Shown here: positions 1,361 to 49,781 of the stretch, one piece after another | Layout of the letters: each line of letters opens with the position of its first letter | How positions within the stretch are numbered: the stretch's first letter is position 1 | From: Mustelus asterias | Taxonomy: Eukaryota | Assembly: GCF_964213995.1 (NCBI RefSeq) | Contig: NC_135813.1 | Location: forward strand, 61,008,001-61,072,000 | Direction: 5' to 3' | Length of the DNA stretch: 64,000 nt | The notes under the pieces: generated by a model | What the model was told of the DNA's origin: nothing | Database searches by the model: none | The model's input: only the letters and a program-made list of their open reading frames with translations | Made by a program: the position numbers and the translations under genes

Positions 1361-1920
1361 GAAGTGAGGGGAGGGGGGTGTTCCCCTTGCCGACACCAAC
1401 ACTCAGCTCCGGCTGTTAGATTAGTGTCTTGACATAGTCCGGTCCCAGCCAGGGGAATAATTGTAGTGCGGACAGGATGAAGCCCCTGAGTGACTCTTAA
1501 TAGGTCACTTAAGGGCCTCAATAGGCTCAAAGGTGCGCGTGCCACAGAACGAATTTGTTCTTCCCAATAGTTGGAGGAGATTTCTAATCATCACTGTAGA
1601 ACAGTTCAGTGAGGCGATGGTGAGATAGAGCTTCGTGCTTTTCGAGTGCATAAAGAGCCTGATGTGCTTTCAGATGATGCCTACAAGGGGGAGCATGCGG
1701 ATGGGAAAAAGAATGGGGGCCAGGGACATATTGTTGAGTTGCTAGCATGGGAGCAGGAAGAGAAGCCATTGCAGACAAATCTGTGGATATTATTTGATAA
1801 ATAATGATGGAGCCAGATCACGAGAATAGGCCCAAGCAACTGACAAACGGTGGAGATTTTTTGGATCGTGTGTTGAATCGTGTCAAAGACCGACGCCAGT
1901 CCGAAAACAGCGAGCAGTCG

Positions 1921-2240
1921 GGCGGCACGGTGGCACAGTGGTTAGCACTGATCCGTCACAGCGCCAGGGACCCGGTTTCACTTTGCAGCTTGAGCCACTG
2001 TCTGAGCGGAGTCTGCACGTTCTCTCCGTGTCTACGTGGGTTTTCTCCGCGTGCTTCGGTTTTCTCCCAAAGTCCGAAAGACGTGATGATTAGGTGCATT
2101 GGTCATGCTAAATTCTCTCTGTGTACCCGTACAGGCGCCGGAGTGTGGCGACTAGGAGATTTTCACAGTAACTTCATTGCAGTATTTGCAGTTTGGATTA
2201 CAACAGGTAATTGTTAGCCTACTTGTGACCAAAAATAAAG
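1921..2240 (+). mobile_element. tRNA-derived shark SINE (HE1/V-SINE-like)
   Basis: tRNA-like head GGCGGCACGGTGGCACAGTGGTTAGCACTG (A box), V-domain-like TGCACGTTCTC(T/C)CCGTGTCT(A/G)CGTGGG, and an A-rich 3' end with AATAAA. Family assignment is from recall of shark SINEs. Confidence 0.85.
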
Positions 2241-3459
2241 AAACTGTAAAAAACTTAAAAACTTTAAAAAACAGGAATAGTTTGCTATCGTTATAATTGA
2301 ATAACTTTGATAAGGGTCGTATCAGTATTGTGGCAGAAGCAGAAACGCGATTCTGGGAATTCAATGCTGGAGTTGTTGGAACGATAGTATGGATTTGGGG
2401 TTGGCAATTTCTTCAAGTGGTTTAGAGAGGAAATGTTAACTGAAGATCGGCAGTAGTTCACAAGGACAGAGGAACAATGCTGTTTGCAAAGAGAAGTTTG
2501 ATGGTAATCGGTGTGAAAATATAACAGTACCTGAGGAGAGATAGCAACTAATGATATCAGCGAAAGTGGAGACAAGAAAAGAAAGTTGGATGGTCAGTAA
2601 TTTAGCGGAAACATGGTCAACATGGGTCTAATGGAAAAACTGAGTTGCGAAAGCGAATGAGGGGATATATGAGAAAACAAATCCGATTCAACTATGATGC
2701 ATGCGAAGTAGTGCTTCCTCATTTCACTCCTAAATAGCTTCGCTTTAATGAAAGAGTGTGCCCTATTTTGCTGGATTGTGTTATTAGTGGAAATGATTTC
2801 TCTGGACCTATCCTTTCACACCCGCTGACCATTTTAAATACGTCGAATACGTATAGAGTGCAGGGGAAGACAGACAGTGAGTTGCCTTGAGTGATTTAGC
2901 ACAACAATCTTGCTATTCCAATCTATATACTCATTAAGGGTTTTAACTCTCTTCACTTTAAGCACTTGGTTTAGCAAAGCCACACAAATTGTTGCTTCAG
3001 CCATAGCCTCATATCAATCAAGAAACAAGAGATCCTGAAACATTTTCAACCACTTTTGTGCAAAATACCAGTGTTTGAAAGTCATGCCTTCTCAAATAGA
3101 AAGTGCCTCTGGCCGTCTGTATATAAGGCAGTCCCAAGTAAGGATAAAGTTCAACATTTCTTGCTGAGCCAGTGTTCCCGCACGTTATATTGGTGTTCAG
3201 TATGCTTCCATGATGCAGCATGGTCCAAATTGTCAAAACATGCTCTTGACTGCATCTATTCTTAGGTGCACTATTTTAAGATACTGCTTCCGCAATCCTT
3301 GCTGATATAAAAGTGTTTATCTTTTTATTACTGGATTGTAACTCTGGAAATATCTGAGTCTCTTTTAGTGTCTGAGGTGAGGCACTCTCACAGGAGATTC
3401 ACCTGGATGCTGTCTGGGCTGTGGTTATTTTTCGTAGAACAGAGTAAGCTGAGGTGTTA

Positions 3460-3790
3460 ACTCATCAAGGTGCAAATAATTATGAACGATACAGATAGGA
3501 AGAAACCTTTCACCTCAGTAGAGGGGTCAATAATCGGGGGGCATAGATTTAAGGTAAGGAGCAGGAGATTTAGAGGAGATTTGAAGAAATTCTTCTTCAG
3601 CCAGAGGGTGCTGGGAATCTGGAACTCAGTGTCTGCAAGAGTGGTGGAGGAAGGAACCCTCACGACACTTAAGAAACATTTTGATGAGCAATTGAAAAGT
3701 CATTGCATACACCGATACGGGCCGAGTGTTGGTAATTGAATTAGAATAGATAAGTTTTTTGGTGGTCGGCACAGACGCGAAAGGCCTCAT
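3460..3790 (+). mobile_element. CR1 LINE 3' fragment (ORF2 C-terminus); copies near 22590, 42090, 61585
   Basis: ORF 3470-3739 reads GHRFKVRSRRFRGDLKKFFFSQRVLGIWNS, the typical CR1 ORF2 C-terminal motif. Confidence 0.8.
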
Positions 3791-3929
3791 TCTGAGCTGG
3801 ATTCCCCCCTCCAGCTTTAAAGGGTAATACATAGTACGTTTCAGCAATCGGTCTTAAAAATTGAACCCTTCAGCAATTACTTCACCCTGACGAATCAGTC
3901 CTGTACCCATTCATCATACCAATATATCC

Positions 3930-4050
3930 GCGGCAATTGTACCGCCCCGCCCACCACGGAATCAGAGCGGACGAGGGCGGACAACGGAAATGTCCCTTGA
4001 CCTCTGGTGGGAATTTCGGGTCTCGATCGAGCGAGGACGTAAAAATCCCG
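3930..4050. mobile_element. Short GC-rich MITE-like element with imperfect terminal inverted repeats; present in every unit
   Basis: CpG-rich ~120-bp island bounded by GGCAATTGTAC...GTAAAAATCCCG; resembles abundant short non-autonomous shark elements (recall only). Confidence 0.4.
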
Positions 4051-4079
4051 TAGCTCAGTGTGAAAACCTAAATCCAGCA

Positions 4080-4790
4080 CTCCAGATGTGATCTGATCAA
4101 GGCTGTAGACAACAGAAAGCATTACTTCCCCACTTTTTAGTTTCAATGACCTTGTGATAAAGGCAGGCATTCGGTTTGATTTCTAATTTAACTTGTGTCC
4201 ATGAAGTTTTTAGTGACTTATGTCCAGGAACACCTAAATCCCTTTGTTCATTCAAAGCATCTCGCCGCGTAGCTTTAGGTAAATATTTCGAGCTACTCGC
4301 TATCATATTTTGGTCACAGAATCACAGAATTCACTGGTCCATTCACTTAGTTTATCTATGAAGAGTCAGCCAACTTGCGATACCTCCTTATCTTAAGCTG
4401 ATCTACCGATGTGTTTATGAAACTCTCTAACCCTCAATTTGAACGAAACTGCATTTGTCACATCCAGCCAATGAAGGAACAAATCCTTGATTGGCACTTT
4501 CTCTCTCCTACCCATAACCAATTCCCTACCAATATGTTCAAATAAATTATTTATTCCTTCTGCCACTGGATCTATTTTATGTCTCCCCGTTTCGGACTCA
4601 CTCACGGTGGAAAATCTTTCTCTGTGTTCCCGTATCACACCTTTTCCGAACATTAAAGCCGCCTATTACTCCTCCGCATCCTCTCCTCAGAGAAAAGAGC
4701 CCAACATATTCATTTTCCTGATAGGCACATCGTCCCAATCCCAGTAAATATCTGGCAAATAATTTCTGCACATTCTCATGTCCTACAAGA
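4080..4790 (-). mobile_element. Degenerate CR1 fragments (minus strand)
   Basis: Minus-strand EQRDLGV motif (ORF 4097-4306) and a CACAGAATCACAGAAT tail-like repeat at ~4315-4330. Confidence 0.55.
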
Positions 4791-5579
4791 TCATTTTTGA
4801 GGTATGTAGACTATAGATGAGGAAAACTCCATAAAACGCTAATAAATCCCCGGGTGTTTTGTTTTGTTCTTCTGGAAGTGCACCAGCACCTTGTTTGCAC
4901 TTTTTATCAACTGCGCAACTTCTTGCTACATATAGCAATTTATGTCTTGCAAGCCCAAATCTAACTGAAGAAATAAAACAATAACGTATCAAAGGGATGT
5001 CCTGTCGACTTTGTGATTCGTGTGACGATGAAGTTTAAAAAAACAGACTTTGTTCGGAGCTGGTTTGAGTCAATGCCTCACTGAAAATGCATCTGGGGAA
5101 GTTGACATGTTAGTAAAGCGCCTGCTTCAGTATGATCATTATTGGCCAATAAAAGCAATCGTATAGTTTGTTTAAAAAATGATTTGCAGTACCAGAACCT
5201 GCATTGTATCGGGTGTATTAAAAAATGTGGCAGTGACGGAGTTTGCCCTGAATATTGGTAATCAGGTGGTGTAGAAATGACTGCCCGTTTAATGTATTTT
5301 TGTAAATCTCGAGACGCAGTTCAGCCCTTTCAGTATAATGGCAGAGTGTAACGAGGTCCATTTTAAAAAAAAATGTTGCAATATTACTTCATGGTGCTAA
5401 TTTAATGTCACCGATCGTTTCCTTGTTGCGCCTGGATGTCATTGGCTTGAAATAAAATGTGCAGAGTATCACAATGATAGAATCTCACTATTTAATTCCC
5501 CTTGGAATGCTGCCATTAATTGTTTATGAGGGAAAGAGAGAGAATAACAGAACGTCGGTCGAGATAACGCTATAATGAT

Positions 5580-5585
5580 TTTATT
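5580..5585 (-). terminator. Candidate polyadenylation signal AATAAA of gene 1 (second, proximal AATAAA at 5721-5726)
   Basis: TTTATT on + strand ~195 nt downstream of the stop, followed on the sense strand by a pyrimidine-rich tract. Conserved at 24742, 44236 and 63740. Confidence 0.6.
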
Positions 5586-5779
5586 ACACAGCTGTATCAA
5601 TGACATTACAGTGAAGCTTTGATCCATTCAGGGTGAACACAGTTAATTTGAAACTAAGGGAGTCAGCCGATCTGCTACAAACTGTGATGAAATGTTTGAA
5701 ATGTTCCACTATTTGCGGAATTTATTTTGAAATGACACTTTACCAACGGCAGAATACAAGAATGCATTAGATGCGTGAA

Positions 5780-6102
5780 TCAGATACAGTTGGATCTGGA
5801 GATGCTTGTTTGAAGTGGGTTTGCTTGAGTCTCGTGTTTAACCACACAGGCGTAAAGCTCGTGTGAGTTCCACTCTGAGGCTAACAGAGTCAGATAACTG
5901 CTCACACTGAACGTGTTGTCCGCCTCTTGCTGGATCCGACTGGTCTCAACCCCATTCCTTCTGACGCTGCCATCTACAGTCCATTCAATCTCCGCAGCTC
6001 CTGGGTTAAAACCGCTCACCAAACACACCAGGGTCGCCATGTTCTTCGCTGTGATTTGATCTGCTGAAGGCGGAAGGACAGACACAATGGGGCTCCGTGG
6101 AT
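5780..6102 (-). CDS. IGLC: Ig light-chain (lambda/type II) constant exon, gene 1
   Basis: (N)PRSPIVSVLPPSADQITAKNMATLVCLVSGFNPGAAEIEWTVDG...FSVSSYLTLLASEWNSHELYACVVKHETQANPLQTSISRSNCI*. C1-set Cys/Trp/Cys and penultimate Cys for the H-L bond. Acceptor ctactttccAG at 6103-6104, phase 1, matching the J donor. Confidence 0.97.
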
Positions 6103-7699
6103 CTGGAAAGTAGAGACAAATGATTGTACATCCATTAAGAATCGGCATAAATGACTGAATCGTTGTTTCACCTTCTTCAAATTGTTTTTTAAAATCGGTA
6201 TTATTCTACGGAATGTATAGATTTTACATTGTGGAGTCATATTGTTGCCAAATGCAAAAAGGCCATGACTCTCGTTTCTGGAACACATACAACGTGAGAA
6301 GGTTTTCCTTTTTTCCCTGATTGGACAGGAACATGCAAACAAAATCTGATCTAAAGGAAATAGTGGAGTTTGAAATATTAAAGAGAAAAATAAGACGGGA
6401 GGTTTATTGCATCCAGATGTGATCTGAGGCAAAGCTGTCCGACCAAAGAGAATTTCAGAACAACGTCAATCACTCAGAATTTGGGCTCAATGTTGGAACT
6501 TATGCTGACCGCAACATTTCTATATTTTGGAACTCAAAAAACTCGATTCAAAACAATGAAATCGATTGTTTGCTTTTGTCACCATTTACACTTCTCTGAC
6601 GCAAGTCCGACATACTGGACTGATGTTTGGATTTGTGTACATTCTTGCCACGGCTTCACACGGTGTCGCGCCCAGACCAACAGTGACGATGTAGCGTAAA
6701 TCTTAACAAATAACTCCCTGTCGCAATGGAAATGTTTGGAGACATTTTTTGCGAGTGGAGTGTCACAAAAGATTTGTTACAGCAAAGAGGAAGAGTTTTT
6801 AACAAATATTGTAAACAATTCTAGTATATTAGAACATAACGTAACGACACCCTCAAAAGGCCATTAATAAACCAAACATGTCCTCATAATTATTCATCTC
6901 TCACACCTTTTCGCCGAAGCAGAAGGACTGTGAGATCTTACTGTGCTTAGATAGGGAGCCATGATTCTGACATTTGAAGAATGATTCTACTTCACAAGCA
7001 CATAATTGTGAGGATGTTCTGAGGTCGTGGTCGGCGCCAAATGAATGCAGGTTTGCATTTTCTTTCCTTTGTCATGAGTAGATATTCGCAAAGCTGAAAG
7101 GGCGTTGTCTCAGAATCTTGTCTCTTTAAGTCACCATTTATCACTTAAGTTACCATCTATCACAGTCAATGGAGAAACGCTCAGTAAATAGGTTGAGGCG
7201 TCGTAAGGCATCGAAGAAAGGGTTCAAATATGAAAAGCCATTACTAACTAAAAGGATAAGGCTGACGTTTTACAATTCTCCCTGACATTGAGGTATTATG
7301 TCGGCTACAACAACAGTATGAGGTTTGTCGCTGTCGGTGTAAAAATCGATTGTCTTTGGAGCTGCAAATTCGTCTTGTTTTTTTTTGGAATGTAATTTGA
7401 ATGTTGAAACTGAGTCGGCAGACAAATGCCGCCAGCCCTTATTTCAATGTCGGTATCGTCTTCCTGCGCAACTGAGAGTTTCGCTGAATAATCTCAAATG
7501 TCTGCACCGATGAGCAGGTGTGACGATCAACTTCTATTTAAACGGAAGCGTACTTAAGTGAATTATTTTTACACCGGCATTTTCTCCAGATATGATTTCT
7601 CAAAGTAACAACTAAAATATTCAAGAGCATTTTTCTCCTTTTTGCCTCATGCTGGTCCATTTCACCGTAACATAGTCCAATAAACATATGACTTGAAGA

Positions 7700-8972
7700 A
7701 GAAAATAAAAAATAAAGGAAAGGAAGATTGAGAAGGGAAGAGACCCTGACCATAATTTTCCAATCGTGCCTGGAGCAGGCTTGGCTCTCAGAGACAGGAG
7801 GACAGATGAAATTGTGAAAGGGCGAAAGGGGGGTAACATAGTTTTAGACCAGTGAACCAAACCTCACTAAAGGGAGAACAATTGGAATAAGCGCGGTTTA
7901 ATCAAATACAGCAGTCACGGCTTTGCTGGCGGAATATCTTACCTCACAGCGTGAATTGGTATTTTTGAGCAGGTAGCATGAGCGGTGAATGACGGCAATA
8001 TTTTTAGTATCGTCTACATGGATTTTAGCAAGGCTCTTGTTAAGTTCACACATAGGTATGAACAGGTTGGATGCGAAATTGGTTCAGAGGCAGGAAGTAA
8101 AGGGTCCGTATATCAATGAGTGCCTCTATGATTGTTGTCAGATAATACAAATTTGACAATGTGTTTGCTAACGAAGAAAGCTGGATAATGCAGGAAGACA
8201 ACAATGGACTAGTCAGATAAGTTCAACAGCGGCAAATGGAATTAAATGCGGAAAAGTATGAGGAACTATATTTTTCAGGAAGGCCAATAAAACAAGCGAG
8301 TACACTTTATAAATGGGACAATGCCGAGAAATGTAGAGAAACTGAGTGAACTGAAAATGCATTTCCGCAGATCCCGAAGGCGGCTGAGCAAGTGGATATG
8401 GTAGCAAAGAAGGCATGTGAGGCAGTTACATTTATAAGCCGAGGTATAGATTGTTAGAACTTGAAGGTTATGCTGAAACTGCTGGAAAGGTGCGTAGGAA
8501 ACATGTAATTGTATGAGAGCGAGTACAGGGGAGATCGAGAGGGATGTCGGCTGAAATGGAATATTTAGTTATAAGTGTTGAATTGGCCAGCGTTCATTTC
8601 TTTGGAACAGACGAGGCTGAAGGGAGATCTAATGGAAGGCATTATATTCAGAGGTGTCTGGACAGAATGGATAGGAAAACAGTTTTGCCAATGTTTGACG
8701 GGTCGATAAGAACGGCACTTGGATTTAGCGTTAGAAGTAGAAGGTTTAGCGGAGATTCGAAGGGAATAGTTTCACCCAGAGGGTTTTGGGGGATGTGGAA
8801 CCTACTGCCGGGAAGGCTGTTAGTGGCAAATTAATGGACACTTAAACGCACATACAATGTGTAATCGAAAGGCTCATGAATAAATGTTAGATTGTTCCTT
8901 GTGAACCAGTGCAGACGCGATTGACCAAGTAGGTTGTAACAATGTTGCAAAGATGTATCATTCTATGATTCT
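7700..8972 (+). mobile_element. Old degenerate CR1 LINE (RT to 3' tail) in the J-C intron; copies ~26880-28150 and ~46370-47640
   Basis: GTCTACATGGATTTTAGCAAGGC (VYMDFSKA) at ~8012, a CR1 C-terminal GxWNxLP motif at ~8790, and a TTCTATGATTCT tail at ~8961. Many frameshifts. Confidence 0.75.
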
Positions 8973-8999
8973 GCGAATATATTATATTGCTTTCCTCCC

Positions 9000-9365
9000 T
9001 CACTGACGCACAGGGGCTACAGTGTGCATATTTCTGAGGCACCCTGCCGCAACTCCGACAAGAGCTTCCAAACCAGCCATGTTTTCCACTGGACGAACAC
9101 ACGGGCAGCAGATGCACGGTAGCACCACCAGTTGGTAAATTCCCATCAATCCACACAGCATACCAAAGTAGAACTGTACCGCCTTTCCTTCACTGTCGCT
9201 TGGCCAAAAACTCTTAACCCTCTCCCTAAGAGCTCTGCGATGCATCTCTGACACATGGACGACATCGGTTTGAGAATGCGGCTCACTATCACTTTATCCA
9301 TGGATATTAGGCGGGGTGCAATGAATGTTAGCTTTCTGGTCACATCCCATGAATCAATGAAAATG
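9000..9365 (+). mobile_element. 3' end of a second shark CR1/L2-type LINE family
   Basis: GGGCAGCAGATGCAC...CTTCACTGTCGCT...CACATCCCATGAATCAATGAAAA tail; homologous to the 3' part of 15125-16770. Confidence 0.6.
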
Positions 9366-10453
9366 GCAGTAATCCCCATGTTTTGTTGTATTACTACTCA
9401 CTGACAATCACAGAACCAGCAGCAGAGCTGAACGAGTCCACAACAATACTCAAAAACCTGACAACCTATTCCGAGACATTCCAAAGCAACCGATTGGATA
9501 GGAAGAAAATGGAACGTAATTTCCGAGTGAAGCAAACATTCTGCGCATCGATTATGTTTCTTACTACGTTATCCAGTAACACTCAGGATCGATTAGTACT
9601 GGCGGAATTCTCGCAACAATATGGTTATTTTGGTCACCTGTGATTAATGCGAAATGTTTGGCTGAGAATCTTGTACCGAACTGTTTTCGGTGAGTTTGGG
9701 GACCAGTGGGAATGGGTCCCACCCAGGTACCACACTATCCTTCCGCAGGCTGAATGCAAGAAAGATCTTAAAACACAATGTTGCTTCAAGTGGAACAAAG
9801 CAGCCTGATGTGAACGTTTTGAATGTAATTCCAGCGTTTTAAACCAGACTACAAGGGCAGCATGTGAAACAGCCTGAACCACTATATTGCTTTCATACAA
9901 TCATGGAATTATAGAGCACACAACGGGGCCCATCGGAGCTTGTAAAAAACCTGCCCACTCAGATCATTTTCATGCCTGTTTTCTTCACTTTTGAAATGTT
10001 TATCGTCTTGCTAATTATAGTTCCGCTCGCGGTGTTCATATAGCGAGGGTACTCCACTCCTAACACTGGCTGAGCGAATAAAAACATCCCATCCTTCCAG
10101 CGATTGCATTCAAATAATGTCCTCGCACTGCCGACTGGATCAGATGGCTCAAACGTCTGGAGAGCCGCAGCAGATCAGACCGTAAGCTTCCAGTGAAATG
10201 AATTTCACTCGAAATTAAATTGCCCCTTTACCCGATCCCATAATTGGACACAATCTAGAAAATCACCAAAGTTCTGAGCCCAGCTATCACTGCAATGTCT
10301 TGGCTGCTGACTCAAGGATCCCCCATAAAAATATTTTCGCAGCAACCATTTTGATTTGAACTCATTCAATCCACCGATCCGACCGTTTCGAAGTACATTT
10401 TGTTATTTAGATAGCGTCACAAATGCTAGAGGACATTTAAGTGATTTACTTAC

Positions 10454-10801
10454 TGTTCAGATTCAACTTCGTTCCTCTCCCGAAAATGAATCTATATGGA
10501 CTGCTGAGCTGAGCAGCACAGTAATAATCTGCCGCGTCCTCCGATTGCACGTTGGTGATGGTTAAATGCATCTTGTTACTCGATGAGTCCACAGACCCGG
10601 TGAATCGATCTGGAATACCCGAAGCTGTATCAAAGCTCTCATCCCAAACAAGCACAGGGGCGCTGCCGGGTTTCTGCCAGTACCAGCTCGTGTAGTAGCT
10701 GCTAATGCTGCCTCCGGACATGGTGCAAGTGATGGTGACGGTCTCTCCCGTCGAGGACGAAATGGATCCTGGTTGGGTCAGGACAGGATCCGCAATTGTA
10801 C
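10454..10801 (-). CDS. IGLV: Germline-joined V-J exon, Ig lambda (type II) light chain, gene 1
   Basis: (S)TIA-DPVLTQPGSISSSTGETVTITCTMSGGSISSYYTSWYWQKPGSAPVLVWDESFDTASGIPDRFTGSVDSSSNKMHLTITNVQSEDAADYYC-AAQLSSPYRFI-FGRGTKLNLN. YYC runs in frame into FGxG with no RSS. Acceptor caccAG at 10802-10803; donor A/GTAAGT at 10453. Confidence 0.97.
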
Positions 10802-10941
10802 CTGGTGAAATGCAAAGTATTGTCAGTCACACACTGTGAAATGTTGAATATAGCTTACAATTCAGATTCGTTAAATCACAAGCGCAAAAGCAGATAATGT
10901 GAAAAAAATGAGCGTTACTTCAGGTTGACGCCCGTACTTAC

Positions 10942-10990
10942 TGTGGAAACAGAGTATCAGTGCGGCGAGAACTCCAATCGATTGTGTCAT
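10942..10990 (-). CDS. IGLV: Leader (signal peptide) exon, gene 1
   Basis: ACC-ATG context; MTQSIGVLAALILCFH(S); donor A/GTAAGT at 10941; 140-bp intron. Exons of 49+348+323 nt = 720 nt = 239 aa + stop. Confidence 0.95.
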
Positions 10991-11059
10991 GGTGAAGGTT
11001 TGGGGAGAGGAAGAAGGAGAATAAATCCTGACACGAATGTGCTTCTGAGTCCATTCCAA

Positions 11060-11130
11060 ACTCCTTAAAAAGATTCAGACACCGCAGGGCGAATGAATAT
11101 TAATTACGTATGCAAATTGCCTGTCACGTG
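11060..11130 (-). promoter_or_regulatory. Ig light-chain promoter: octamer ATTTGCAT (11110-11117), E-box CACGTG (11125-11130), TATA-like TTTTTAA (~11065-11071)
   Basis: Perfect octamer in the light-chain sense orientation ~120 nt upstream of the ATG; conserved in all three genes. Confidence 0.85.
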
Positions 11131-11471
11131 ATATTAGGCCAAAGATCTCCATTTCGGTATTGTCTGATATTTGGAGAATGCGCACGTCAGCCATTTTGGA
11201 ACAGAAGAAAAATAAATCTCCCAAGCCACAGAATAGCATGCAAAATGGCTCAATAACCTCCCCCCAAAAAATAAACGGTGCGGTGAAACACAAAGAGATT
11301 AAATGGATCGTGTCTTGATCTCTGGAAGCCTGCCGATTACAATAAATAAATATTGCGGACAGAAAGCTGTTTAATAGGTGCATCGTTTTTGGTGAATAAA
11401 TTAGAGACGAAACGTGCGAGTTGAGATTTCATGTGCACACAGAGAGGTGTAAGGGAATTGACCACCGTCCG

Positions 11472-11708
11472 NNNNNNNNNNNNNNNNNNNNNNNNNNNNN
11501 NNNNNNNNNNNNNNNNNNNNNNNNNNNNNNNNNNNNNNNNNNNNNNNNNNNNNNNNNNNNNNNNNNNNNNNNNNNNNNNNNNNNNNNNNNNNNNNNNNNN
11601 NNNNNNNNNNNNNNNNNNNNNNNNNNNNNNNNNNNNNNNNNNNNNNNNNNNNNNNNNNNNNNNNNNNNNNNNNNNNNNNNNNNNNNNNNNNNNNNNNNNN
11701 NNNNNNNN
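11472..11708. repeat. N-masked tract, probably a (GATA/GATG)n microsatellite
   Basis: The homologous tract in unit 3 is preceded by visible GGATAGATAGATGGA. Spans between fixed flanks are 238/246/242 bp, differing by multiples of 4. Confidence 0.7.
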
Positions 11709-13329
11709 CGCCAAGCCCCGAGGAACATTTTATTACCTACCTGGAATGTGATTGAGGTCCCAAAACTCTCCACTCAGCACTATTCAAGTGTTGGAAACCC
11801 ACGGCATTCACAGTGAGTTAAGCCTTGGCAAAATGAAATGCTCCAGGAAACAGAGCTTTTCGCATGATTTTCGTTATTGGATTTGAGGGGTACATTTGCT
11901 GTCATTTGAAAGGATGAGTTTGAGAATGTCAATGCACTGGCCGACGTCGGAATGAGCTGAAAGTAGCAATTTTTTCAAATCAGATTTCTGATGGCAGGTG
12001 ACCCTACCCCCAACACTACCCTCGCTTCCCGCCGCACAACAGTATTGCAGAAGTCATCGTACAATGTTCCATTGCTCACTCATTTGAAAAGTTAAACAAA
12101 ATCAGGCAAGCCAATTAAATGCTGATAACGTTAGCTTATCACACACCTTCACCCCATGTGTCCTTGAACAATTGTGAGAAGTAACCTTTTGATTATGCAG
12201 CTGAGGCGCACAGAGGAGAACGAGAAGAAATGAATTAATTACTTCGCCTGGAGAGCTGACGATCGCGGCTACAGGTGCAGTTGCGTCAGTGTAAAGAATT
12301 CGAGAAGCTTCATCGCAGAAGGAGAGCAATCAGTCAATCGCATCCATGTCGGTTCTGTAAAGGAGCGATCGAAGTGGAATTTCTGTCTTGATCTTACTCC
12401 AATTTTCGACACATTTTCCACCTTTTTGAGAGTGATTGTTGAATCTTCTTCCGCCAGCCTTTGATCCAATTGACTCCAGATCATTAAGAGTCGGAACACA
12501 TTTAACCACCACCACCCCTGTTCCCGGGTTATTTCAAATGTTTGCCTTCTGGTGATCAAACATCCCGACATTTGAATCAGCTTCTACTTTCTTTATCCAA
12601 CACCTTTAAGAACATCTTTATCAAATCTACTGTGCGGCTTTAAGGAGAACAACCCCAGGGTTCTCTCGTCTTTACATCTAACTGAGGGCCTTTATCGCTG
12701 AAAACATGCGAATACACCTTCTTGCACTCTCTCCACGGCCTTGAAAGACATTCGAAGAATATTGTCAAGAACTGGACTCAATATTCTAGCTAGGGTCTAA
12801 CAAAGATAAAAGGGTTAACATATTTGCTTGCATTTGTACCCGGTTGTTGGAATTTTACTGACTCCCGTGCCGACAGAATGAAGGGTGGGGAAGGAATATT
12901 AAAATTTCTCCACCACTGGGAAAATTTCCAACCGGCGGTCAGGTAGAGGGATCAGGAACAGATAATTAAAGTTGTTCGGCTGAAAGATATCGCAGGATAT
13001 TTACTGAAAGATATGTCTCAGGTCCACGTCATGCAGTGCAGTCAGTACCCGGGGAGTGAGAGGCTTAAGGCCTTGCCTGTGGGTGGAATGTACAGAGTTG
13101 ACATCTGCAGTGTAGAGAGAGGGAGAGAGACAGATACTAGTTCAGTTTAATGCAACAAGACAGCAGGAGCGAGAGAAGAACCACCCTGATGGCGTGCCAG
13201 CGGAATCGGAAAACGATTCGCATCGGGCCAGGAATGCAGGTTAAATTTGACTGAAGACGGTACGCAGCTGAAATAACAGACAGAAAGTGGGCCTACTTCA
13301 TGGAGATGTTGAAGTCCCAATAGAACCAA

Positions 13330-15122
13330 TGATTGCGTCCGATTGGAAGCAAAAGAGTAAAACTCTGCGAATCGTGGCAGAGCTGAAGATTGGGAAGATT
13401 ATAATAACCGAGAGGGAATGGCTAATAAAGTAATGACGAAGGAGAATTTAGAGTATGAGAGAATGTTAGCTAGACATATTAAAATAATGTAGGAATTTCT
13501 ATATGCTTTTAAAAAAGAAAATGCTCACTAAAATAAGTGTGGTTCCTCTGGAGAAGGAGTATCGGAAATTCATAATACGAAATGAGGAAATGGCGACAGA
13601 CTTGATACATTTTCAGTGCCTCGCTGTGGAATACATAAATAATATCCCAGAAATACTTGCAGGTGAAGAGGTGGAAGGGAGCGAGGAACATAAAGCAATT
13701 ACAACCACCAGATCAATGCTACTGAGAAAACGATCAGAACTAAAGGCTGTCAAGTCGTTAGGGCATCATGGAGCTTGGTAAGATACCCTTAAGGAGAGTG
13801 GATGCAGAGGCGATGGGCCAATTGGCCTCACTCTGCATTGTAGTGATTTTATAATTCCATGAGATTGGGAAATAGCACATCTAACTCCTGTATTCAAGAA
13901 AGGAAAGAGACAGAATACATGTAACTACAAGCCAATTAGCCTAACATCTGTCAAAAGTTAAATGTTAGAATCTATTATTAGAAGGTTATCGCAGGGCACT
14001 TGCAATTATGAAGAGCCAACATGGTTTTGTATAATTGAAGCGATACTTTACTACTTTGTTATCCTTACTTGAGCAACTTATTAGTGACGTGCATAAAGAG
14101 GAACCTGTGGAGTTGGATTTCCAAAACGTATTTCATAAGATGCCGCTTCAAAGATACATTATGAAAAGCCAAATAGGAGCTCATCATGCATGGGGTAATA
14201 TTTATCACGAATCGAGGGCTGATTGGCTTACAGAAACAGAGAGGTGGGATAACTGAGCCATTTTGGGGGGGGGGGGGGTCGGGGGGGGGGGGGGGGGTGG
14301 TGGTGGTGGGGCGGGGGGGGGGGGGTAAACTGCAGCCGATGGTGTATCACACGGATTACATCTCGGGCCTCAACTATTTTCAATTTACAGTAATGACATG
14401 GATGATGGGACGGACTGATTGCAATTTTTTTCTCACGACATTAATACGGGGAGAAAAGTAAATTGTGAGGTGCGCATAAATAGCATATAAAGGTATTGAG
14501 ATAGACTACGTGAGTGGTAAAAAGAAACAGGTGGAGTGCAATGTGGTGAAATGCGAACTCGTCCACTTTGGCAGGAAGAACGGAAAGCAGCAAATTATTC
14601 ACACGGGGATGAGAGTGCAAAGGCCCGCAGCGCTGGGGCATCTGGCTGCCTGGAATGTGATTCACAAAACTTTAGCATGAAGCTGCAAGTGATTAGGAAA
14701 GCAACTGCAATGTTGTCACTTATTGCAAGTGGGATGGAATGTAAGAGTAGAGAAGATTCGCTACAAAGAGCTCATCTGAAGTACTTTCCTGTTGGCACGT
14801 GTACCTCAGAACGGATACAATAGCACCAGCGACAGTTCGGAGAAAGGTTCACCCATCAGATGAAAGGGATATCATATAGGGAAAGGTTGGACAGGTTGGA
14901 CCTGTAGCCATTAGAGTTTAGAAGAACTCGAGGTGATCCTGCTGAAACGCCTACGATCCGGAGGGGAATTGAGATGGTGAACGCTGAGGAAGTGCCTTCC
15001 CTCGAAAGAGACGAGAAGGAGGGGACATGAATTAAAATAAGAGGTTTTCCACTTGAGATGGAGATAAAGAGCATTTCATTCTCTGTGAGAACCATTAGCC
15101 TATGGAACTCTCTTTACCAGAG
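13330..15122 (+). mobile_element. Old degenerate CR1 LINE ORF2; copies ~32830-34610 and ~52316-54107
   Basis: GATTGGGAAATAGCACATCTAACTCCTGTATTCAAGAAAGGA (DWEIAHLTPVFKKG), NYKPISLTS, QHGF and LDFQNVFHKMP remnants, and TGGAACTCTCT near 15105. Many stops. Confidence 0.8.
14265..14325 (+). repeat. Poly-G/(GGT)n tract, variable between units (33765-33825; 53249-53321)
   Basis: Direct reading: long G runs with (GGT)n, embedded in the CR1 relic. Confidence 0.9.
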
Positions 15123-15124
15123 AT

Positions 15125-16770
15125 ATCCCATCGTGAATGGTGGTGGATAATTAAACAACTGACTGGAGGAGAAGACATCACAAATTTCTCCATCCTCAAT
15201 GAGCAGTGAAAAAGATAAGGCTAAAGCATTCGCAAAAATCGTCTGTCACATGTGCCAAGTGGATGATCCATCTTGGGCTTCTACAAAAATGGTCAGTATC
15301 ACGGATCTCAATCTTCAGTCAATTCAATTCGCTCCACGTGATATCAAGAAGTGCCCGAATGCGTTGGATACTGCAAAGGCTTTGGGCTCCAACAATATTC
15401 TATCGACAGTCCTGAAGACTTGTGCTCCAAACGATGCGGCCCCGCCAGTCAAGTTGTTTCAGTACATCTACAACACTGGCATCTACCCGGCATTGTAGAA
15501 AATTGCCCATTTATGTCCTCTACGCAAAAAGAAAGGTAACACCAACTTTATTCGTTCGCCATCAGGCCACTCCAGATCATCAGTAAATTGATGGAAGAGT
15601 TCATTAACAGCGCAATGAAACGGCAGGAACATAGCAGGAACCTACTCTCTGGCACATAGTTTGGATTCCGCTAGTCACTCAGCGCCTCACTTCATTACAG
15701 CCTTGGGTCAAACATGGACAAGAGTAGTTGAATGCCAGATGTGAAGTGACTGCGTTTGACGTCAAGGCAGCACATGTGGAATTAAGGAGCCCGAGCAAGA
15801 CTGGGGTCAATTAGAATCAGAGGGAAAACTACGCTGGTTGGAGTCATACCTGGCACAGAGGAAGAGTGTTGTGGTGGTTAGAGTTCAATCATCTAATTTG
15901 CAAACTTCACTGCAGGAGTTTCTCAAGATGGTGTCCAAGGCCCAACCATCTTCAGCTGCTCTATCAATGACCTTCCTTGCATCATAATGTCAGCAATGAT
16001 CGCACAGTGCACAGTACCATACCCGCATCCTCAGAGGCTGAAGCCGTCCGTGTCCAAGTGCAGTAAGCCCTGGACAATATCCAAGTTTGTGTTGACAAGT
16101 GGCAAGTAGTGCCAGGAAATGACCATCTCCAACAACAGAGAATCTAACCATTGTCCCTTGACATTCAATGGTATTGCCATCAATGTCGACATCCTGAGGG
16201 CGACCATTGACCAGAAACTGAAGTGGTCTTGACATTTAAATATGGTGGCTACAACAGCAGGTCAGAGGTTATGAATCCTGTAGCAAGTATCTCACTTCCT
16301 GACTAGCCAAACCTATCCACCATCTGCGAGGCACAAGTCAAGAGTGTGATGGAATACTTTGCACGAGCCAGGAGAATGCAGCTTCTATAACTTTCAGGAA
16401 GCTCACACCATCCAGGACAACACTTGACTGGCACCGCTTCCACAAACTCCCTCCGCCACGATGAACAGTGGCAGCAGTGTGCACCATCTGCAAGATGCAC
16501 TGCATAAACCCATCCAGGCTCCATTGGCAGCATCTTACAAAGTCACATCGCAACCGTCCAGAAGGACAAAGGCAGCAGACACATGGGGACACAACTACCT
16601 TCGCGCTTTCCTCCAAGTCATTCGCAATCTGACATGGGGAAGTATTGCTTTCCTAGACCACAGGGACTGCGCTGATTCAGCAAAGCAGTTCACCACCATC
16701 ATCTCGAGGGCAATTAGCGGTGAGGAATAAATGCTGGTCTAGTCAGCGATGCCCACATCACGTAACAAAA
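15125..16770 (+). mobile_element. Degenerate CR1/L2-type LINE (second family), RT region to 3' tail; copies ~34613-36258 and ~54110-55755
   Basis: DTAKALGSNNILSTVLKTCAP...KLFQYIYNTGIYP, TTTGACGTCAAGGCAGCA (FDVKAA), GGAGTTTCTCAAGATGGTGTCCAAGGCCCA (GVxQxxVxGP), and 3' tail AATAAATGCTGGTCTAGTCAGCGATGCCCACATC. Confidence 0.75.
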
Positions 16771-17649
16771 TGCAGAATTCGATAGATTCCTGATTGAAAA
16801 GGGATCCAAAGAGTATAGGGGTGAACAAGAATGTCGGGCCGAGCCCACGATCACATCAGCCACGACCTTAGGCCTAATCTTCGTTCCAATTCATATGATC
16901 GTATGATTCGTATTTGCGCCCTTTTTGACTCCTTTTATCCTATTAAATTTCTGAACCTTCGGATCCATTAATGTGGCACTGGCAGCATTATCTTTAGTGA
17001 ATGAGGCAGGAAAGGAAGTGATAGTAAAACATTTTGTGACACTGGGTTCTTACTGCTTCTAATCATTCGGATTCCCTGATATTATGGACATTCACCACTG
17101 AAAAGGGGAACTCATTAAACATCCGAATTAATTGACAATACCTGAAGAGAATATTCTGAAAACGACTTTCATGTCCGAATGCCTATTTTCCAAGTGTCCA
17201 CGTATTTTGCCAGGAATTGATATTTTGAGATATTTTAACCGCAAATACACTTCATGTAATAACACGGTCCTTGGTATACCAAGTCCAATATTGCCATCTG
17301 CTGGTTCAGCCGCAAAAAGCGCGCAGTTTCATTGGGATGCGTTCTGGACTTTTTTCATCTATTGTACGTCGTCCAATAGAAAGCAGGGGGAATGAAATGA
17401 CAATTATAAAATAAAATTCTGGATAAAGTCAGGAGATCTGGTCGCACTTGTGAGGAGCGAAACACAATTTCTGTATAAGGGTAATTCGCACTGCCGTGTT
17501 CGGTGAAACAGTGTTCAGTCTCTAATAAATTAAGCGTAAATCTCATCAGTACTTTTATCATGCATTTCAAACGTTTCGAAGACAGGTGCAGGCGCAGCCT
17601 CAAACTAGGGAGCAGGAACCTACACTGTAAAGCATGGCGGACGCTGTAG

Positions 17650-17865
17650 TCCGGCGACGAATGATCGAATTAGCATTGCAGAGTCCTGGAACAAGCAATG
17701 ATTCTAAATCCCACCATGGTATCTGGCAATAAGCCTTGAACAAATTAGTTGTCTTAATGTTAACCACGAAACTACTGAATTGCTGAAAAAAAACATTCGC
17801 TTCATTAACATCATTCCGGGCAGGAAATCTGCCATCTTTACTGAGTACATACGTGACTCCACGTT
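17650..17865 (+). mobile_element. Degenerate DeuSINE/SacSINE1-like fragment
   Basis: AAATCCCACCATGG...GGAAATCTGCCATCTTTACT...ACGTGACTCCA resembles the Deu-domain SINE core (recall, not searched). Confidence 0.4.
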
Positions 17866-17874
17866 TTCCGTCGC

Positions 17875-18142
17875 GAAATAGATACAGAAGTCTGAGGACA
17901 CGTACCAACCAACTTAAGAACAGCTTCTTCACTGCTGCCCTCAGACTTTTGAATGGACCTGCCTCGCATTAAGTTGATGTTGCTCTGCACCCGAGCTATG
18001 ACTGCAACACTACATTCTGCACTCTCTCCTTTCCTTCTCTGTGAACGGTACGCTTTGTCGGTATAGCATGTAAGAAACAACACTTGTCACTGTATACGAA
18101 TATACAAGACAATAATAAATCAAATCAAATAAAATCAAATCA
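17875..18142 (+). mobile_element. Rex1/Babar-type LINE 3' end with (ATCAA)n tail; copies ~37363-37630 and ~56860-57122
   Basis: TACAGAAGTCTGAGGACACGTACCAACCAACTTAAGAACAGCTTCTTC (YRSLRTRTNQLKNSFF...RLLN), then a 3' UTR, AATAAA and ATCAAATCAAAT repeats. Confidence 0.65.
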
Positions 18143-18529
18143 AAAACATTTGTGCTATTAGGGAAACATTTGCACAATACATGGCCAGCCATGCTGGTAA
18201 CACGCTGTTAGCAGTGGTGTTGATGATGAACCTCCTGATCAGATTGCTTTACCTGTTACAGAAAGAGCCCGTTCACCTGAGATGATTCTAAAAATAACAG
18301 CAAAGGCCAAAGCGGCAGTGGCGCAAAGTTTGTTTTCAATTATGGAGGTAGTTACAGATGAAAATTAGAAGCCAGGAGTGAATGAGTTTGGGGGAGGGAG
18401 AGGCGAACATCAGAGCGCATGTACAACCTAGCAGAAAGCAAGAACACAATTGGTGCCATGCTGAAAACATACTATTATTTATATAAATTGGAACGAGTTG
18501 AGGCCACAGCACTGATCATTGTGGCACAC

Positions 18530-19270
18530 CACCCCTTACATCTTGCCAATCACAAAATTGTCCCTTTTGCCCACCCTCTGTCTCCTGTTCGCTCGCAGAT
18601 TTTCTGTCCATGACCCCACACGATAAACTCTCCTTTTCCGCAATACCCTTTGCTTTGACATCTTATTAAATGCTTACTGAAAATTACAGTACATCCACCT
18701 GCTCACCTTTATCCACAGCACGCTACTTCTTCAAATCACTCCAGTAAATTGGCTGAACATGAATTCCCTTTCACAAAACTGTGTTGGCTCTATCTGATGA
18801 CCGTGATTTTACTTCTGTGCCCTGCTATCAAATCTTTAATAACCGCTGCTACCATTTTCCTTATATGTCATACGGTGAGCTAACTGGCGTTGTTCAGCTG
18901 ACATGTATTGTTCCCTGCTATAGGTCTCTTTTTCCTATTGCATTAAAGTGCGACATTCGCTGTTTTCCAATCTAATGCACACTTCCCAGAAACTGGGGAA
19001 TTTTGGAAAATTAAAACCAACCCATCAATTGTCCCTTTAGAGACCTTCGGGTGAAATCCATCGGGACCTGAGGACTCATCAGCCCACATCTTCAACAACT
19101 TCTGAATGTCGTTTCCCTGACGATTCTAATTTTCTTGAGTCCTTCTCTTCCATTTCCTGCTCTACAGCTATTTCTGTGATAGAACTTGTATCCGCTACAG
19201 TGAAGACTGAAAGCAAAATGCCTGTTCTAGTCATCTGCAATCTTTTTGTTTGCGACAAATTCCCCAGACT
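18530..19270 (-). mobile_element. Degenerate CR1 RT fragment (minus strand)
   Basis: Minus-strand Y(C)xFQxAFNKMS and S-S-G-P-D-G-F-H-P-K motifs. Confidence 0.65.
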
Positions 19271-19347
19271 CAATTTCTATCGAACTGTCGCCCACTCTAT
19301 GAACGGTTTTCTTTTTTTTATCGTTTACCTTCACAATTTTAAGTTGA

Positions 19348-19460
19348 TTTATTAGTGTCACGAGCAGGCGTACATTAACATTGCAATAATTGACTATGAA
19401 ATCCCCCAATCGCCACACTCCGGCACCTGTTCGGGTACACTGAGGGAGAATTAGCAATGC
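19348..19460 (-). mobile_element. 5'-truncated copy of the tRNA-SINE 3' tail
   Basis: Reverse complement of CTCCCTCAGTGTACCCGAACAGGTGCCGGAGTGTGGCGATTGGGGGATTTCATAGT...GTGACACTAATAAA, matching the tail of the SINE at 1921-2240. Confidence 0.75.
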
Positions 19461-21058
19461 TAAGCACGTGCCACAGTGCCAAAGGCAAGAAATAACTGAC
19501 AAAACCCCAGAGTATTCGGGAAATAAATGAACTGGTTTGGAAGCATCTATGGAGACAGAAACAGAGGGAAAATTGCGCCTCCAAATGTGCCAGATGTAAA
19601 TACATAAAATTCATGTGATGAGTTTTGTTGATCTGAAATTCACTTAAAGAGTACAGGAAACCGATCCAATTAAAACTTCAAGATGAAAATTGGATAGATT
19701 CATGAAACCGATGTCTGCATGAAATGCCCATCGTGCACTGGAGTGCGATTACTTGGATAGCTCTTTCAAAGAGTACAGTGGGTCAATGGCATTTTTGTGT
19801 TGTACTCTTCAGTGAAATGGTTGGGAACTGAGCTCAATATAAGGGTACTAAGTCATTTTTCAGTTGTGTTTCCCTTTGGAGGGAACCAGATGTTTATCCA
19901 TTCTATGTACACGTACTTTTCGTTAGCTGGTGACATAAAGTTGCATAGCCAGTTGTAATGATCAGGAATGCAAGAACTTAAATGATGACGGAGCAGATTC
20001 CGAAGTCTCTTGTAAAAGTCAATAGAACTTACATGTGAAACGAATAACAATTGAAAGATTATGGCGAGAGAATGTCTTGGATTAACTGGCCATCGTCACT
20101 TCTCTTTGCTCCTATTCTAAACAATGGTCCACTGATCCTGAGTCTAAGCCCCCATGTTCTGGATTTCACAGCCAGGGCAAACATCCGGCTGTACTCTTCA
20201 GTTGCAAGGACAGGGTCTTCGGATAGTCGGTTTGCCTGCGCCGCCAACTCACCTCCCCGCTCATGCTGTCCGCTTTGCAGCCATTGGACATGTGGTGGAG
20301 ACAGAAATCGGGCAAAGGCAAGACATGCACATCCTTCTGCGGAGGAGTTACCACCTGAGAGGACTGATGGCCAACCGTTTGTGCAGCAACTCTGTAGGTT
20401 CGAGTACTGGCGACAGTTCGGATTACAACCGGTCTCCAATGACGAAATCTAATGTCGGCCAAATGAGGAAGATCCTTGGAGCTTTGGTGGGGCCGAGGGA
20501 AGTGAGGGGAGGGGGGTGTTCCCCTTGCCAACACCAACACTCAGCTCCGGCTGTTAGATTAGTGTCTTGACATAGTCCGGTCCCAGCCAGGGGAATAATT
20601 GTAGTGCGGACAGGATGAAGCCCCTGAGTGACTCTTAATAGGTCACTTAAGGGCCTCAATAGGCTCAAAGATGCGCGTGCCACAGAACGAATTTGTTCTT
20701 CCCAATAGTTGGAGGAGATTTCCAATCATTACTGTAGAACAGTTCAGTGAGGCGATGGTGAGATAGAGCTTCGTGCTTTTCGAGTGCATAAAGAGCCTGA
20801 TGTGCTTTCAGATGATGCCTACAAGGGGGAGCATGCGGATGGGAAAAAGAATGGGGGCCAGGGACATATTGTTGAGTTGCTAGCATGGGAGCAGGAAGAG
20901 AAGCCATTGCAGACAAATCTGTGGATATTATTTGATAAATAATGATGGAGCCAGATCACGAGAATAGGCCCAAGCAACTGACAAACGGTGGAGATTTTTT
21001 GGATCGTGTGTTGAATCGTGTCAAAGACCGACGCCAGTCCGAAAACAGCGAGCCGTCG

Positions 21059-21380
21059 GGCGGCACGGTGGCACAGTGGTTAGCACTGCTCCCTGACAGC
21101 GCCAGGGACCCGGTTTCACTTTGCAGCTTGAGCCACTGTCTGAGCGGAGTCTGCACGTTCTCCCCGTGTCTGCGTGGGCTTTCTCCGCGTACTTCGGTTT
21201 TCACCCGAAGTCCGAAAGTCGTAATGATTAGGTGCATTGGTCATGCTAAATTTTCTCTCAGTGTACCCGTACAGGCGCCGGAGTGTGGCGACTAGAAGAT
21301 TTTCACAGTAACTTCATTGCAGTATTTGCAGTTTGGATTACATCCGGTAATTGTAAGCCTGCTTGTGACTAAAAATAAAG
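21059..21380 (+). mobile_element. tRNA-derived shark SINE (copy in unit 2)
   Basis: Paralog of 1921-2240. Confidence 0.85.
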
Positions 21381-24300: not shown

Positions 24301-24940
24301 CATTATTGGCCAATTAAAGCAATCGGATAGTTTATTTAAAAAATGATTTGCAGTCCCAGATCCTGCATTGTATCGGGTGTATTAAAAAATGAGGCAGTGA
24401 CAGAGTTTGCCCTGAATATTGGTAATCAGGTGGTATAGAAATGTCTGCCCGTTTAATGTATTTTTGTAAATCTCGAGACGCAGTTCAGCCCTTTCATTAT
24501 AATGGCAGAATGTAACGAGGTCCATTAAAAAAAAAAGTTGCAATATTACTTCATGGTGCTAATTTAATGTCACCGATCGTCTCCTTGTTGCGCCTGGATA
24601 TCATTGGCTTTAAATAAAATGTGCAGAATATCACAATGATAGAATCTCACTATTTAATTCCCCTTGGAATGCTGCCATTAATTGTTTTTAAGGGAAAGAG
24701 AGAGAATAACAGAACGTCGGTCGAGATAACGCTATAATGATTTTATTACACAGCTGTATCAATGACATTACAGTGAAGCTTTGATCCATTCAGGGTGAAC
24801 ACAGTTAATTTGAAACTAAGGGAGTCAGCCGATCTGCTACAAACTGTGATGAAATGTTTGAAATGTTCCACTATTGCGGAATTTATATTGAAATGACACT
24901 TTACCAACGGCAGAATACAAGAATGCATTAGATGCGTGAA

Positions 24941-25263
24941 TCAGATACAGTTGGATCTGGAGATGCTTGTTTGAAGTGGGATTGCTTGAGTCTCGTGTTT
25001 AACCACACAGGCGTAAAGCTCGTGTGAGTTCCACTCTGAGGCTAACAGAGTCAGATAACTGCTCACACTAAACGTGTTGTCCGCCTCTTGCTGGATCCGA
25101 CTGGTCTCAACCCCATTCCTTCTGACGCTGCCATCTACAGTCCATTCAATCTCCGCAGCTCCTGGGTTAAAACCGCTCACCAAACACACCAGGGTCGCCA
25201 TGTTCTTCGCTGTGATTTGATCCGCTGAAGGCGGAAGGAGAGAAACAATGGGGCTCCGTGGAT
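24941..25263 (-). CDS. IGLC: Ig light-chain constant exon, gene 2
   Basis: Intact copy (IVSLLPPS...QAIPLQTSISRSNCI*); acceptor AG at 25264-25265. Confidence 0.97.
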
Positions 25264-29943: not shown

Positions 29944-30291
29944 TGTTCAGATTCAACTTCGTTCCTCTCCCGAAAATGAATCTATCTGGACTGCTGAGCT
30001 CAGTGCCACAGTAATAATCTGCAGCGTCCTCCGATTGCACGTTGGTGATGGTTAAATGCATCTTGTTACTCGATGAGTCCACAGACCCGGTGAATCGATC
30101 TGGAATACCCGAAGCTGTATCAGCGCTCTCATCCCAAACAAGCACAGGGGCGCTGCCGGGTTTCTGCCAGTACCAGCTCGTGTAGTAGCTGCTAATGCTG
30201 CCTCCGGACATGGTGCAAGTGATGCTGACGGTCTCTCCCGTTGAGGCCGAAATGGATCCTGGTTGGGTCAGGACAGGATCCGCAATTGTAC
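29944..30291 (-). CDS. IGLV: Germline-joined V-J exon, gene 2
   Basis: DPVLTQPGSISASTGETVSITC...WDESADTASG...YYC-GTELSSPDRFI-FGRGTKLNLN; splice sites intact. Confidence 0.97.
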
Positions 30292-30431
30292 CTGGTGAAA
30301 TGCAAAGTATTGTCAGTCACACACTGTGAAATGTTGAATATAGCTTACAATTCAGATTCGTTAAATCACAAGCGCAAAAGCAGATAATGTGAAAAAAATG
30401 AGCGTTACTTCAGGTTGACGCCCGTACTTAC

Positions 30432-30480
30432 TGTGGAAACAGAGTATCAGTGCGGCGAGAACTCCAATCGATTGTGTCAT
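30432..30480 (-). CDS. IGLV: Leader exon, gene 2
   Basis: MTQSIGVLAALILCFH(S); GTAAGT donor. Confidence 0.95.
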
Positions 30481-30554
30481 GGTGAAGGTTTGGGGAGAGG
30501 AAGAAGGAAAATAAATCCTGACACGAATGTGCTTCTGAGTCCATTCCAAACTCT

Positions 30555-44434: not shown

Positions 44435-44757
44435 TCAGATACAGTTGGATCTGGAGATGCTTGTTTGAAGTGGGTTTGCTTGAGTCTCGTGTTTAACCAC
44501 ACAGGCGTAAAGCTCGTGTGAGTTCCACTCTGAGGCTAACAGAGTCAGATAACTGCTCACACTGAACGTGTTGTCCGCCTCTTGCTGGATCCGACTGGTC
44601 TCAACCCCATTCCTTCTGACGCTGCCATCTACAGTCCATTCAATCTCCGCAGCTCCTGGGTTAAAACCGCTCACCAAACACACCAGGGTCGCCATGTTCT
44701 TCGCTGTGATTTGATCCGCTGAAGGCGGAAGGAGAGACACAATGGGGCTCCGTGGAT
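44435..44757 (-). CDS. IGLC: Ig light-chain constant exon, gene 3
   Basis: Intact copy (IVSLLPPS...QANPLQTSISRSNCI*); acceptor AG at 44758-44759. Confidence 0.97.
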
Positions 44758-49433: not shown

Positions 49434-49781
49434 TGTTCAGATTCAACTTCGTTCCTCTCCCGAAAATGAATCTATCTGGACTGCTGAGCTCAGTGCCACA
49501 GTAATAATCTGCAGCGTCCTCCGATTGCACGTTGGTGATGGTTAAATGCATCTTGTTACTCGATGAGTCCACAGACCCGGTGAATCGATCTGGAATACCC
49601 GAAGCTGGATCAGCGCTCTCATCCCAAACAAGCACAGGGGCGCTGCCGGGTTTCTGCCAGTACCAGCTCGTGTAGTAGCTGCTAATGCTGCCTCCGGACA
49701 TGGTGCAAGTGATGCTGACGGTCTCTCCCGTTGAGGCCGAAATGGATCCTGGTTGGGTAAGGACAGGATCCGCAATTGTAC
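49434..49781 (-). CDS. IGLV: Germline-joined V-J exon, gene 3
   Basis: As gene 2 except CDR2 DESADPASG and one silent FR1 change; splice sites intact. Confidence 0.97.

Follow-up and report, generated by a model that had tools for sequence, protein, structure and literature searches.

The window analysed here, a stretch of 64,000 nt from Mustelus asterias, covers three of about ten tandem units of 19.4 kb, each carrying one germline-joined shark lambda light-chain gene, and the differences between these genes concentrate in the complementarity-determining regions (CDRs). We consider it probable, at roughly three chances in four, that these differences are explained by exchange between tandem copies together with diversifying selection acting on a small number of paratope codons. 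The multi-base changes that resemble hypermutation are likely, for the most part, to resolve into single changes that arose separately. Among the three mechanisms offered in the original prediction, namely positive selection, gene conversion and AID-type mutagenesis fixed in the germline, selection is the best supported.

A BLAST search of the window against its own sequence showed units that are 98-99% identical, with limits at 1360-20497 (g1), 20498-39985 (g2) and 39986-59477 (g3); the beginning of a fourth unit (g4) fills 59478-64000, and its C exon stop lies at 63940. Every unit carries, on the minus strand, an octamer followed by a leader exon, then a joined VJ exon of 348 nt and a C exon of 323 nt. 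In gene 1, these are found at 11110-11117 (octamer), 10942..10990 (leader exon), 10454..10801 (VJ exon, with an open frame to FGRGTKLNL and then a splice donor) and 5780..6102 (constant exon, 323 nt including the stop, with a splice site that matches the annotated relative P0008). The VJ and constant exons are located at 29944..30291 and 24941..25263 in gene 2, and at 49434..49781 and 44435..44757 in gene 3, again on the minus strand. A DNA search of the assembly (G000) returned at least 17 V-like matches, every one within C13:60.95-61.34 Mb, and the copies for comparison were taken from the 400 kb surrounding the window. Six young copies (g1-g6, with g1-g3 in the window) diverge from one another by 0.8-3.3%, and three copies that are 8-11% divergent from them (gA, gB and g7) served as outgroups.

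Several features of the cluster are recorded here in their own right. Four copies are broken: gA (G000:C13:60973299-60973678) by a 1-nt deletion in FR1, g8 (61148172-61148428) by a stop in FR3, p1 (61174342-61174691) by a stop, and p2 (61194369-61194591) by a frameshift and stops. An insertion of about 310 bp is present in the J-C intron of g2 (28729-29050), g3 (48226-48367) and g5, and absent from g1, g4 and g6; it opens with a near-perfect palindrome of 142 bp, and its fragments are scattered through the cluster in the manner of a short interspersed repeat. At the array edge, positions 1-1587 hold a long open frame on the minus strand that resembles a reverse transcriptase, which we take to be that of a LINE.

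The named proteins closest to the g1 VJ and C regions are a lambda chain of Mustelus asterias (P0008, 94% identity) and one of Carcharhinus plumbeus (P0012, 86%), and the V region aligns with human lambda V. In all intact copies, the frame runs uninterrupted through FGRG to the splice donor, which means that V and J are joined in the germline. No RSS nonamer was found from the leader to the C exon of gene 1, and a lone heptamer-like word is present in the leader intron. Moreover, each unit has a single VJ and a single C behind an octamer promoter, which is the organization of a chondrichthyan lambda cluster. Judging by these sequence features, the genes are chondrichthyan lambda (type II) genes joined in the germline.

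Besides these, two copies (gZ, G000:C13:60948257-60948544; gY, 61338206-61338564) are joined lambda genes whose CDR3s are very short and open with an extra cysteine (CCGANTF and CCAASGRWIF, respectively). Four more joined VJ light-chain-like exons, in frame and highly diverged, were detected on C13:60.08-60.17 Mb (L059, L060 and L078) and on C373 (L119). In addition, an in-frame germline-joined VDJ heavy-chain exon (L116, C166:442816-443148) lies amid unjoined VH relatives.

The central observation of the original prediction, that paralog differences are concentrated in the CDRs, is borne out beyond chance both for the g1-g2 pair and for g1-g6. The CDR limits were placed through alignment to a human lambda chain; these limits and the Kabat numbering follow convention, under which we take codon 97 to correspond to about L91. 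An exact recount gave 11 differences between g1 and g2 in the 348-nt VJ exon, and seven of them fall in CDR2/CDR3 as described (TTT/GCT in CDR2; GCT GCT CAG/GGC ACT GAG and TAT/GAT in CDR3). The five differences in the C exon, three of them silent, and the further CDR2 replacement in g3 (T58P, at 49608) were likewise confirmed; g3 also has a silent change at codon 7. Seven differences in the 57 nt of CDR2/CDR3 stand against 239 in 12,036 non-coding positions of the same pair (P=1.3e-4), whereas the 11 differences over the whole VJ exon are unremarkable against that rate (P=0.09). Across g1-g6, variable sites number 12/96 in CDRs, 11/252 in FRs, 9/323 in C and 441/12,036 in non-coding DNA, counted with columns 8 or fewer positions from a gap or N excluded, along with an upstream stretch in which g6 is of an older type. 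The CDR density is thus 3.4 times the non-coding one (P=2e-4), and just 0.07% of geometry-matched non-coding windows reach 12 variable sites.

Adjacent substitutions are indeed commoner in the VJ exon than in non-coding DNA, with adjacent runs forming 2 of 8 VJ events against 8 of 231 non-coding events between g1 and g2 (P=0.039), but the CDR2 run comes apart into single changes. The arrows drawn earlier, which took each run as a single event, were unpolarised; once polarised with the outgroups, the CDR2 run separates completely and the CDR3 run in part. At CDR2 codon 56 (10632..10634, minus strand), g1 and g4 have TTT (F), g2, g3, g5 and g6 have GCT (A), and gA, gB and g7 have TCT (S), as does g8. 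The TCT in all three outgroups rules out TT>GC as one event. By parsimony, the codon would have passed from TCT to TTT in g1 and g4 and from TCT to GCT in g2, g3, g5 and g6, so that the CDR2 run would consist of two single changes from TCT on separate (sister) lineages. The reading of TT>GC as an AGCT hotspot event also fails: the substitutions affect the T of AGCT and the next base, a C, and leave the C/G of the hotspot untouched.

CDR3 codons 95-97 (10509..10517, minus strand) read GCT GCT CAG in g1, GGC ACT GAG in g2, g3, g5 and g6, GCT GCT ACG in g4 and g7, GGT GCT ACG in gA and AGT GAT TGG in gB. Codon 95 is therefore GGT in gA, AGT in gB and GCT in g7, and the best-supported contig of run X5, from a related organism, likewise has G. 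With this G in gA, gB and X5, the CTG/GCA run would, by parsimony, combine G>C with a TG>CA doublet that arose in the g2 group. Another strict doublet, missed in the original prediction, is GG>AA at the J end, where the last J codon (10455..10457, minus strand) is AAC in g1-g4 and g6 and GGC in g5 and the outgroups. CDR3 codon 102 (10494..10496, minus strand) encodes Y in g1, and D in g2 and g3 only. The young clade has gained an acidic CDR2, DES(F/A)D (10631-10643), where the outgroups have (S/Y)(E/Q)YSG; an acidic CDR2 is also present in the distant copy gY and in the lambda chains of other sharks.

Strict doublets number 2 among 23 events in VJ and 4 among 439 in non-coding DNA (P=0.03). 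Codon 97 passes among TGG, ACG, GAG and CAG, and the stem CDR2 changes (TA>AG; TCC or TAC to GAT) similarly lack intermediates. Adjacent CDR pairs, taken unpolarised, number 4 against 0.29 expected (P=0.0002). Among the four old lineages, with multi-state sites left out of the counts, CDR adjacency is not above within-CDR shuffles (1-2 pairs vs 1.0-1.3), FR adjacency is mildly above them (2-3 vs 0.4), and non-coding adjacency is twice the shuffled level (186-193 vs 89). The lesson is that multi-base differences between a pair of paralogs have to be checked against outgroups.

The distribution of replacements points to selection, with pN/pS of 2.4-4.6 in CDRs, 0.20-0.33 in FRs and 0.36-0.43 in C, and 13 of the 14 polarised CDR changes alter the residue. 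A single-hit codon model applied to nine near paralogs gave an omega of 5.6 (P=0.0013). The double-hit rate of 0.39-0.40 returned by a single-class codon model of all near paralogs was rejected as inflated by recombination among g1-g6 and by site heterogeneity, and the model was therefore refitted with one young copy and three site classes. With doublets allowed in this setting, omega above 1 is not significant in lambda (P=0.10-0.30), and in a set this small the effects of selection cannot be told apart from those of multinucleotide mutation; multinucleotide mutation can mimic positive selection, according to 10.1101/165969. The modelled doublet share is 4.9-11.6% in lambda VJ, compared with 1.1% in non-coding DNA, 2.1% in proximal introns and 1.5% in C, and the excess over the non-coding rate has P=0.03-0.17. 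These doublet models cover 14 of the 17 V copies (p1, p2 and g8 are out as broken, and gA is read from past its frameshift). The proposal of positive selection in the CDRs is favoured by the pN/pS values, the single-hit model and the density of variable sites, and loses significance in lambda once doublets are modelled.

Other diversifying families of the same genome were used as controls, drawn from 80 of 150 listed V-set matches and from 40 MHC class I loci out of 132 matches. Kappa genes, which carry an RSS (14 distinct of 15), and VH genes, with no J motif after them (26 distinct of 35), both show replacements focused on CDRs, with doublet shares of 5.8% and 5.7% and selection at P=3e-9 and P=1e-14, respectively, under the doublet model; the VH share fell from 10.4% (P=0.004, two classes) to 5.7% (P=0.14) on refit. 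The doublet share is 6.5% in TCR-like V genes (n=7) and 7.0% in MHC-I alpha-1, where it exceeds the non-coding rate (P=0.005; 23 of the 29 distinct exons were used, the six dropped being divergent or frameshifted), and 3.5%, not significant, in MHC-I alpha-2 (29 of 35). In a perfect-linkage test of the VH, kappa and TCR-like genes, the flank alignments were partly non-homologous (17-52% variable), and the non-coding rows were discarded. The MHC class I genes form a large array at G000:C8:21.6-24.8 Mb (132 exon matches on C8), with positive selection in alpha-1 at P=2e-4. MHC is not a known target of AID. Since MHC-I alpha-1 and the unjoined kappa and VH genes behave alike, the residual doublet signal needs neither AID nor pre-joining, and the excess is typical of diversifying, recombining gene families in this genome. 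The suggestion that the changes stand in for junctional diversity likewise finds no support, because unjoined kappa and VH genes show an equal pattern.

The preferred reading, selection with exchange, is built on the observed array, CDR concentration, replacement excess, mosaic structure and outgroup states. Ordinary germline mutations would arise in a few CDR codons of the tandem joined lambda copies, diversifying selection would keep them, and unequal crossover or gene conversion would then reshuffle the variants between copies. Repeated replacement at a few codons, lost intermediates and recombination would probably produce most of the apparent multi-base changes, and a few runs may be true multinucleotide mutations of the ordinary kind.

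Exchange itself is pervasive: among the 23,220 pairs formed by 216 informative sites, 6,339 are incompatible, the minimum number of exchanges is 49 (a figure that homoplasy may inflate), and the splits cluster in mosaic tracts beyond 5,000 of 5,000 shuffles. The gene conversion claim thus stands insofar as recombination has made mosaics of the units, but the V genes of the cluster yielded no donor for the new CDR motifs. It is accordingly unlikely that more diverged lambda genes donated the multi-base CDR changes in one step through short conversion tracts. Such tracts would suit the outgroup J end and gA-type CDR1 of g5, the CDR3 codons 95-97 common to g4 and g7, and the mosaicism as a whole; however, the 12-mer round GGC ACT GAG, the g2 CDR2 9-mer and the young CDR2 12-mer are each confined to their carriers within the 464-kb cluster. 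All 17 V-like DNA matches, a lower bound, lie in this one cluster, and donors may have been lost from this haplotype.

An origin of the codon-97 doublets in local template switching or slippage is improbable. The g2 state (29993-30002; g1 equivalent 10503-10512) completes a 10-bp palindrome, CTGAGCTCAG, in the g2 type only, a 5-nt tandem repeat exists in the g1 state only, and both palindrome and tandem unit are absent from g4, g7 and gB, yet these are two post hoc cases without a computed null, and TG>CA, GG>AA and the CDR2 run are left unexplained. Local templating is compatible with later selection.

It is slightly more doubtful still that AID with an error-prone polymerase acts occasionally on pre-joined lambda genes in germ cells and makes tandem changes heritable. 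The leftover doublet excess in VJ would fit, as would the TG>CA doublet, which covers a silent base as well as a GYW-motif G (G10514), and codon 97 without intermediates; RAG activity in shark germ cells offers a precedent (argued for in PMC2193156), and the epigonal lymphoid organ is associated with the gonad (passage in PMC4279169). Nevertheless, the CDR2 run is two singles, both off the C/G of AGCT, and WRC hotspots are not enriched in VJ (4/47 vs 7/101 at other C/G; 6/39 vs 10/80 in old lineages; all small numbers). Hotspot overlap was rejected as evidence of AID, since WRCY/RGYW 4-mers cover 33-51% of CDR bases (about 20% elsewhere) and overlap is therefore expected. Somatic hypermutation in sharks leaves an intron footprint. 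In g1-g6, no mutation excess was found in the leader intron plus the first kb of the J-C intron (30/1,044 vs 411/10,992), and silent CDR change is not raised (CDR pS 0.027-0.058). A WRC bias in the proximal intron of the young clade (6/98 vs 5/272, P=0.07) is gone in old lineages and is equalled by 2 of 10 other 1-kb blocks.

Of the 25 polarised VJ changes, only 4 lie in doublets, or 6 when codon 97 is included, compared with a tandem share of 38% (FR) to 51% (CDR) in shark TCR alpha somatic mutation, as passages of PMC5931798 put it (P=0.0005-0.11, the non-significant 0.11 being for the lowest figure with codon 97 counted), and near 60% in shark Ig somatic mutation, as stated in part of PMC8781386; MHC-I alpha-1, moreover, has an equal doublet excess. 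In mouse JH4, an intron mutation footprint and polymerase zeta are described in PMC3371727. It is equally doubtful that polymerase-zeta-type repair acting with AID in germ cells left TG>CA and the codon-97 doublets to be inherited, feeding the germline repertoire. AID-type mutagenesis fixed in the germline is thus unsupported by hotspot enrichment and by the CDR2 doublet, which resolves into singles; on these points two refuting conditions set in the original prediction turned out partly against it, although adjacent changes are still commoner in VJ than in non-coding DNA. At these small numbers, germline AID action is improbable and lacks any specific support. If germline AID action were true, somatic-type mutation would enter inheritance, a long-disputed idea; an array with matched flanks is a good place for testing it, though the present data give no pointer towards it. 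The lambda genes here would still receive normal somatic hypermutation in B cells.

That the differences are somatic variants or assembly errors can be dismissed almost outright: although the copies are 97-99% identical, every key variant is common to 2-5 separate tandem copies, so somatic mutation cannot be their source, and the g2-type CDR3 recurs in a contig of run X2, the g3-type FR1 in a contig of run X4, and run X1 covers the unit at about four times single-copy depth (runs X1, X2 and X4 come from one study that may include the assembled animal and are not independent support). Contigs of X2 and X4 pair CDR2 and CDR3 types that are uncombined in G000; being possible chimeras, they were unused as haplotypes. 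In runs X1 and X2 (10697-11100), P17, the ancestral state, sits on a young-type leader intron, a combination absent from g1-g6 of G000 that may represent array haplotype variation or contig chimerism.

Positive selection in germline V genes was reportedly described by Tanaka and Nei in 1989. The array resembles such systems of selection and birth-and-death in its CDR-limited omega above 1 under the counting and single-hit models and in the pseudogenes among its copies, and differs from other germline V-gene systems in that CDR3 is wholly germline-encoded and hence directly open to selection. Camelid VHH genes show an omega of about 9 and a double-hit rate of 0.157 in passages of PMC10336034, compared with a double-hit rate of 0.14-0.31 in the lambda array. 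In the skate Raja erinacea, germline-joined type I light-chain genes, reported on in 1995 (PMC2192082), have similar CDR-biased differences with replacements above neutral; they are of another isotype and form at least 89 clusters, whereas here the tandem context and flanks are testable. Shark somatic hypermutation with contiguous substitutions (passages of PMC8781386 and PMC4279169) is like the array in the multi-base CDR differences of lambda genes; that process is somatic, 38-60% tandem and hotspot-biased, whereas the changes here are inherited, 16-24% in doublets and without hotspot bias or intron footprint. In the literature outside subscription journals, we found no publication on tandem germline substitutions among shark V paralogs.

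The lambda (type II, nurse shark NS3) clusters of cartilaginous fish have, as here, a single joined VJ and a single C per unit. In the chondrichthyan species studied, lambda genes are all germline-joined, as passages of PMC5192425 and PMC4279169 state. Six loci are reported for nurse shark in PMC5192425, whereas the single 400-kb cluster here has 17 V-like copies, of which six are 97-99% identical. The young array, with its germline-encoded CDR3, could serve in population-level tests of how selection acts on pre-joined receptors, and it is a fresh example of an already known pattern, a young tandem array with a fast-evolving germline CDR3.
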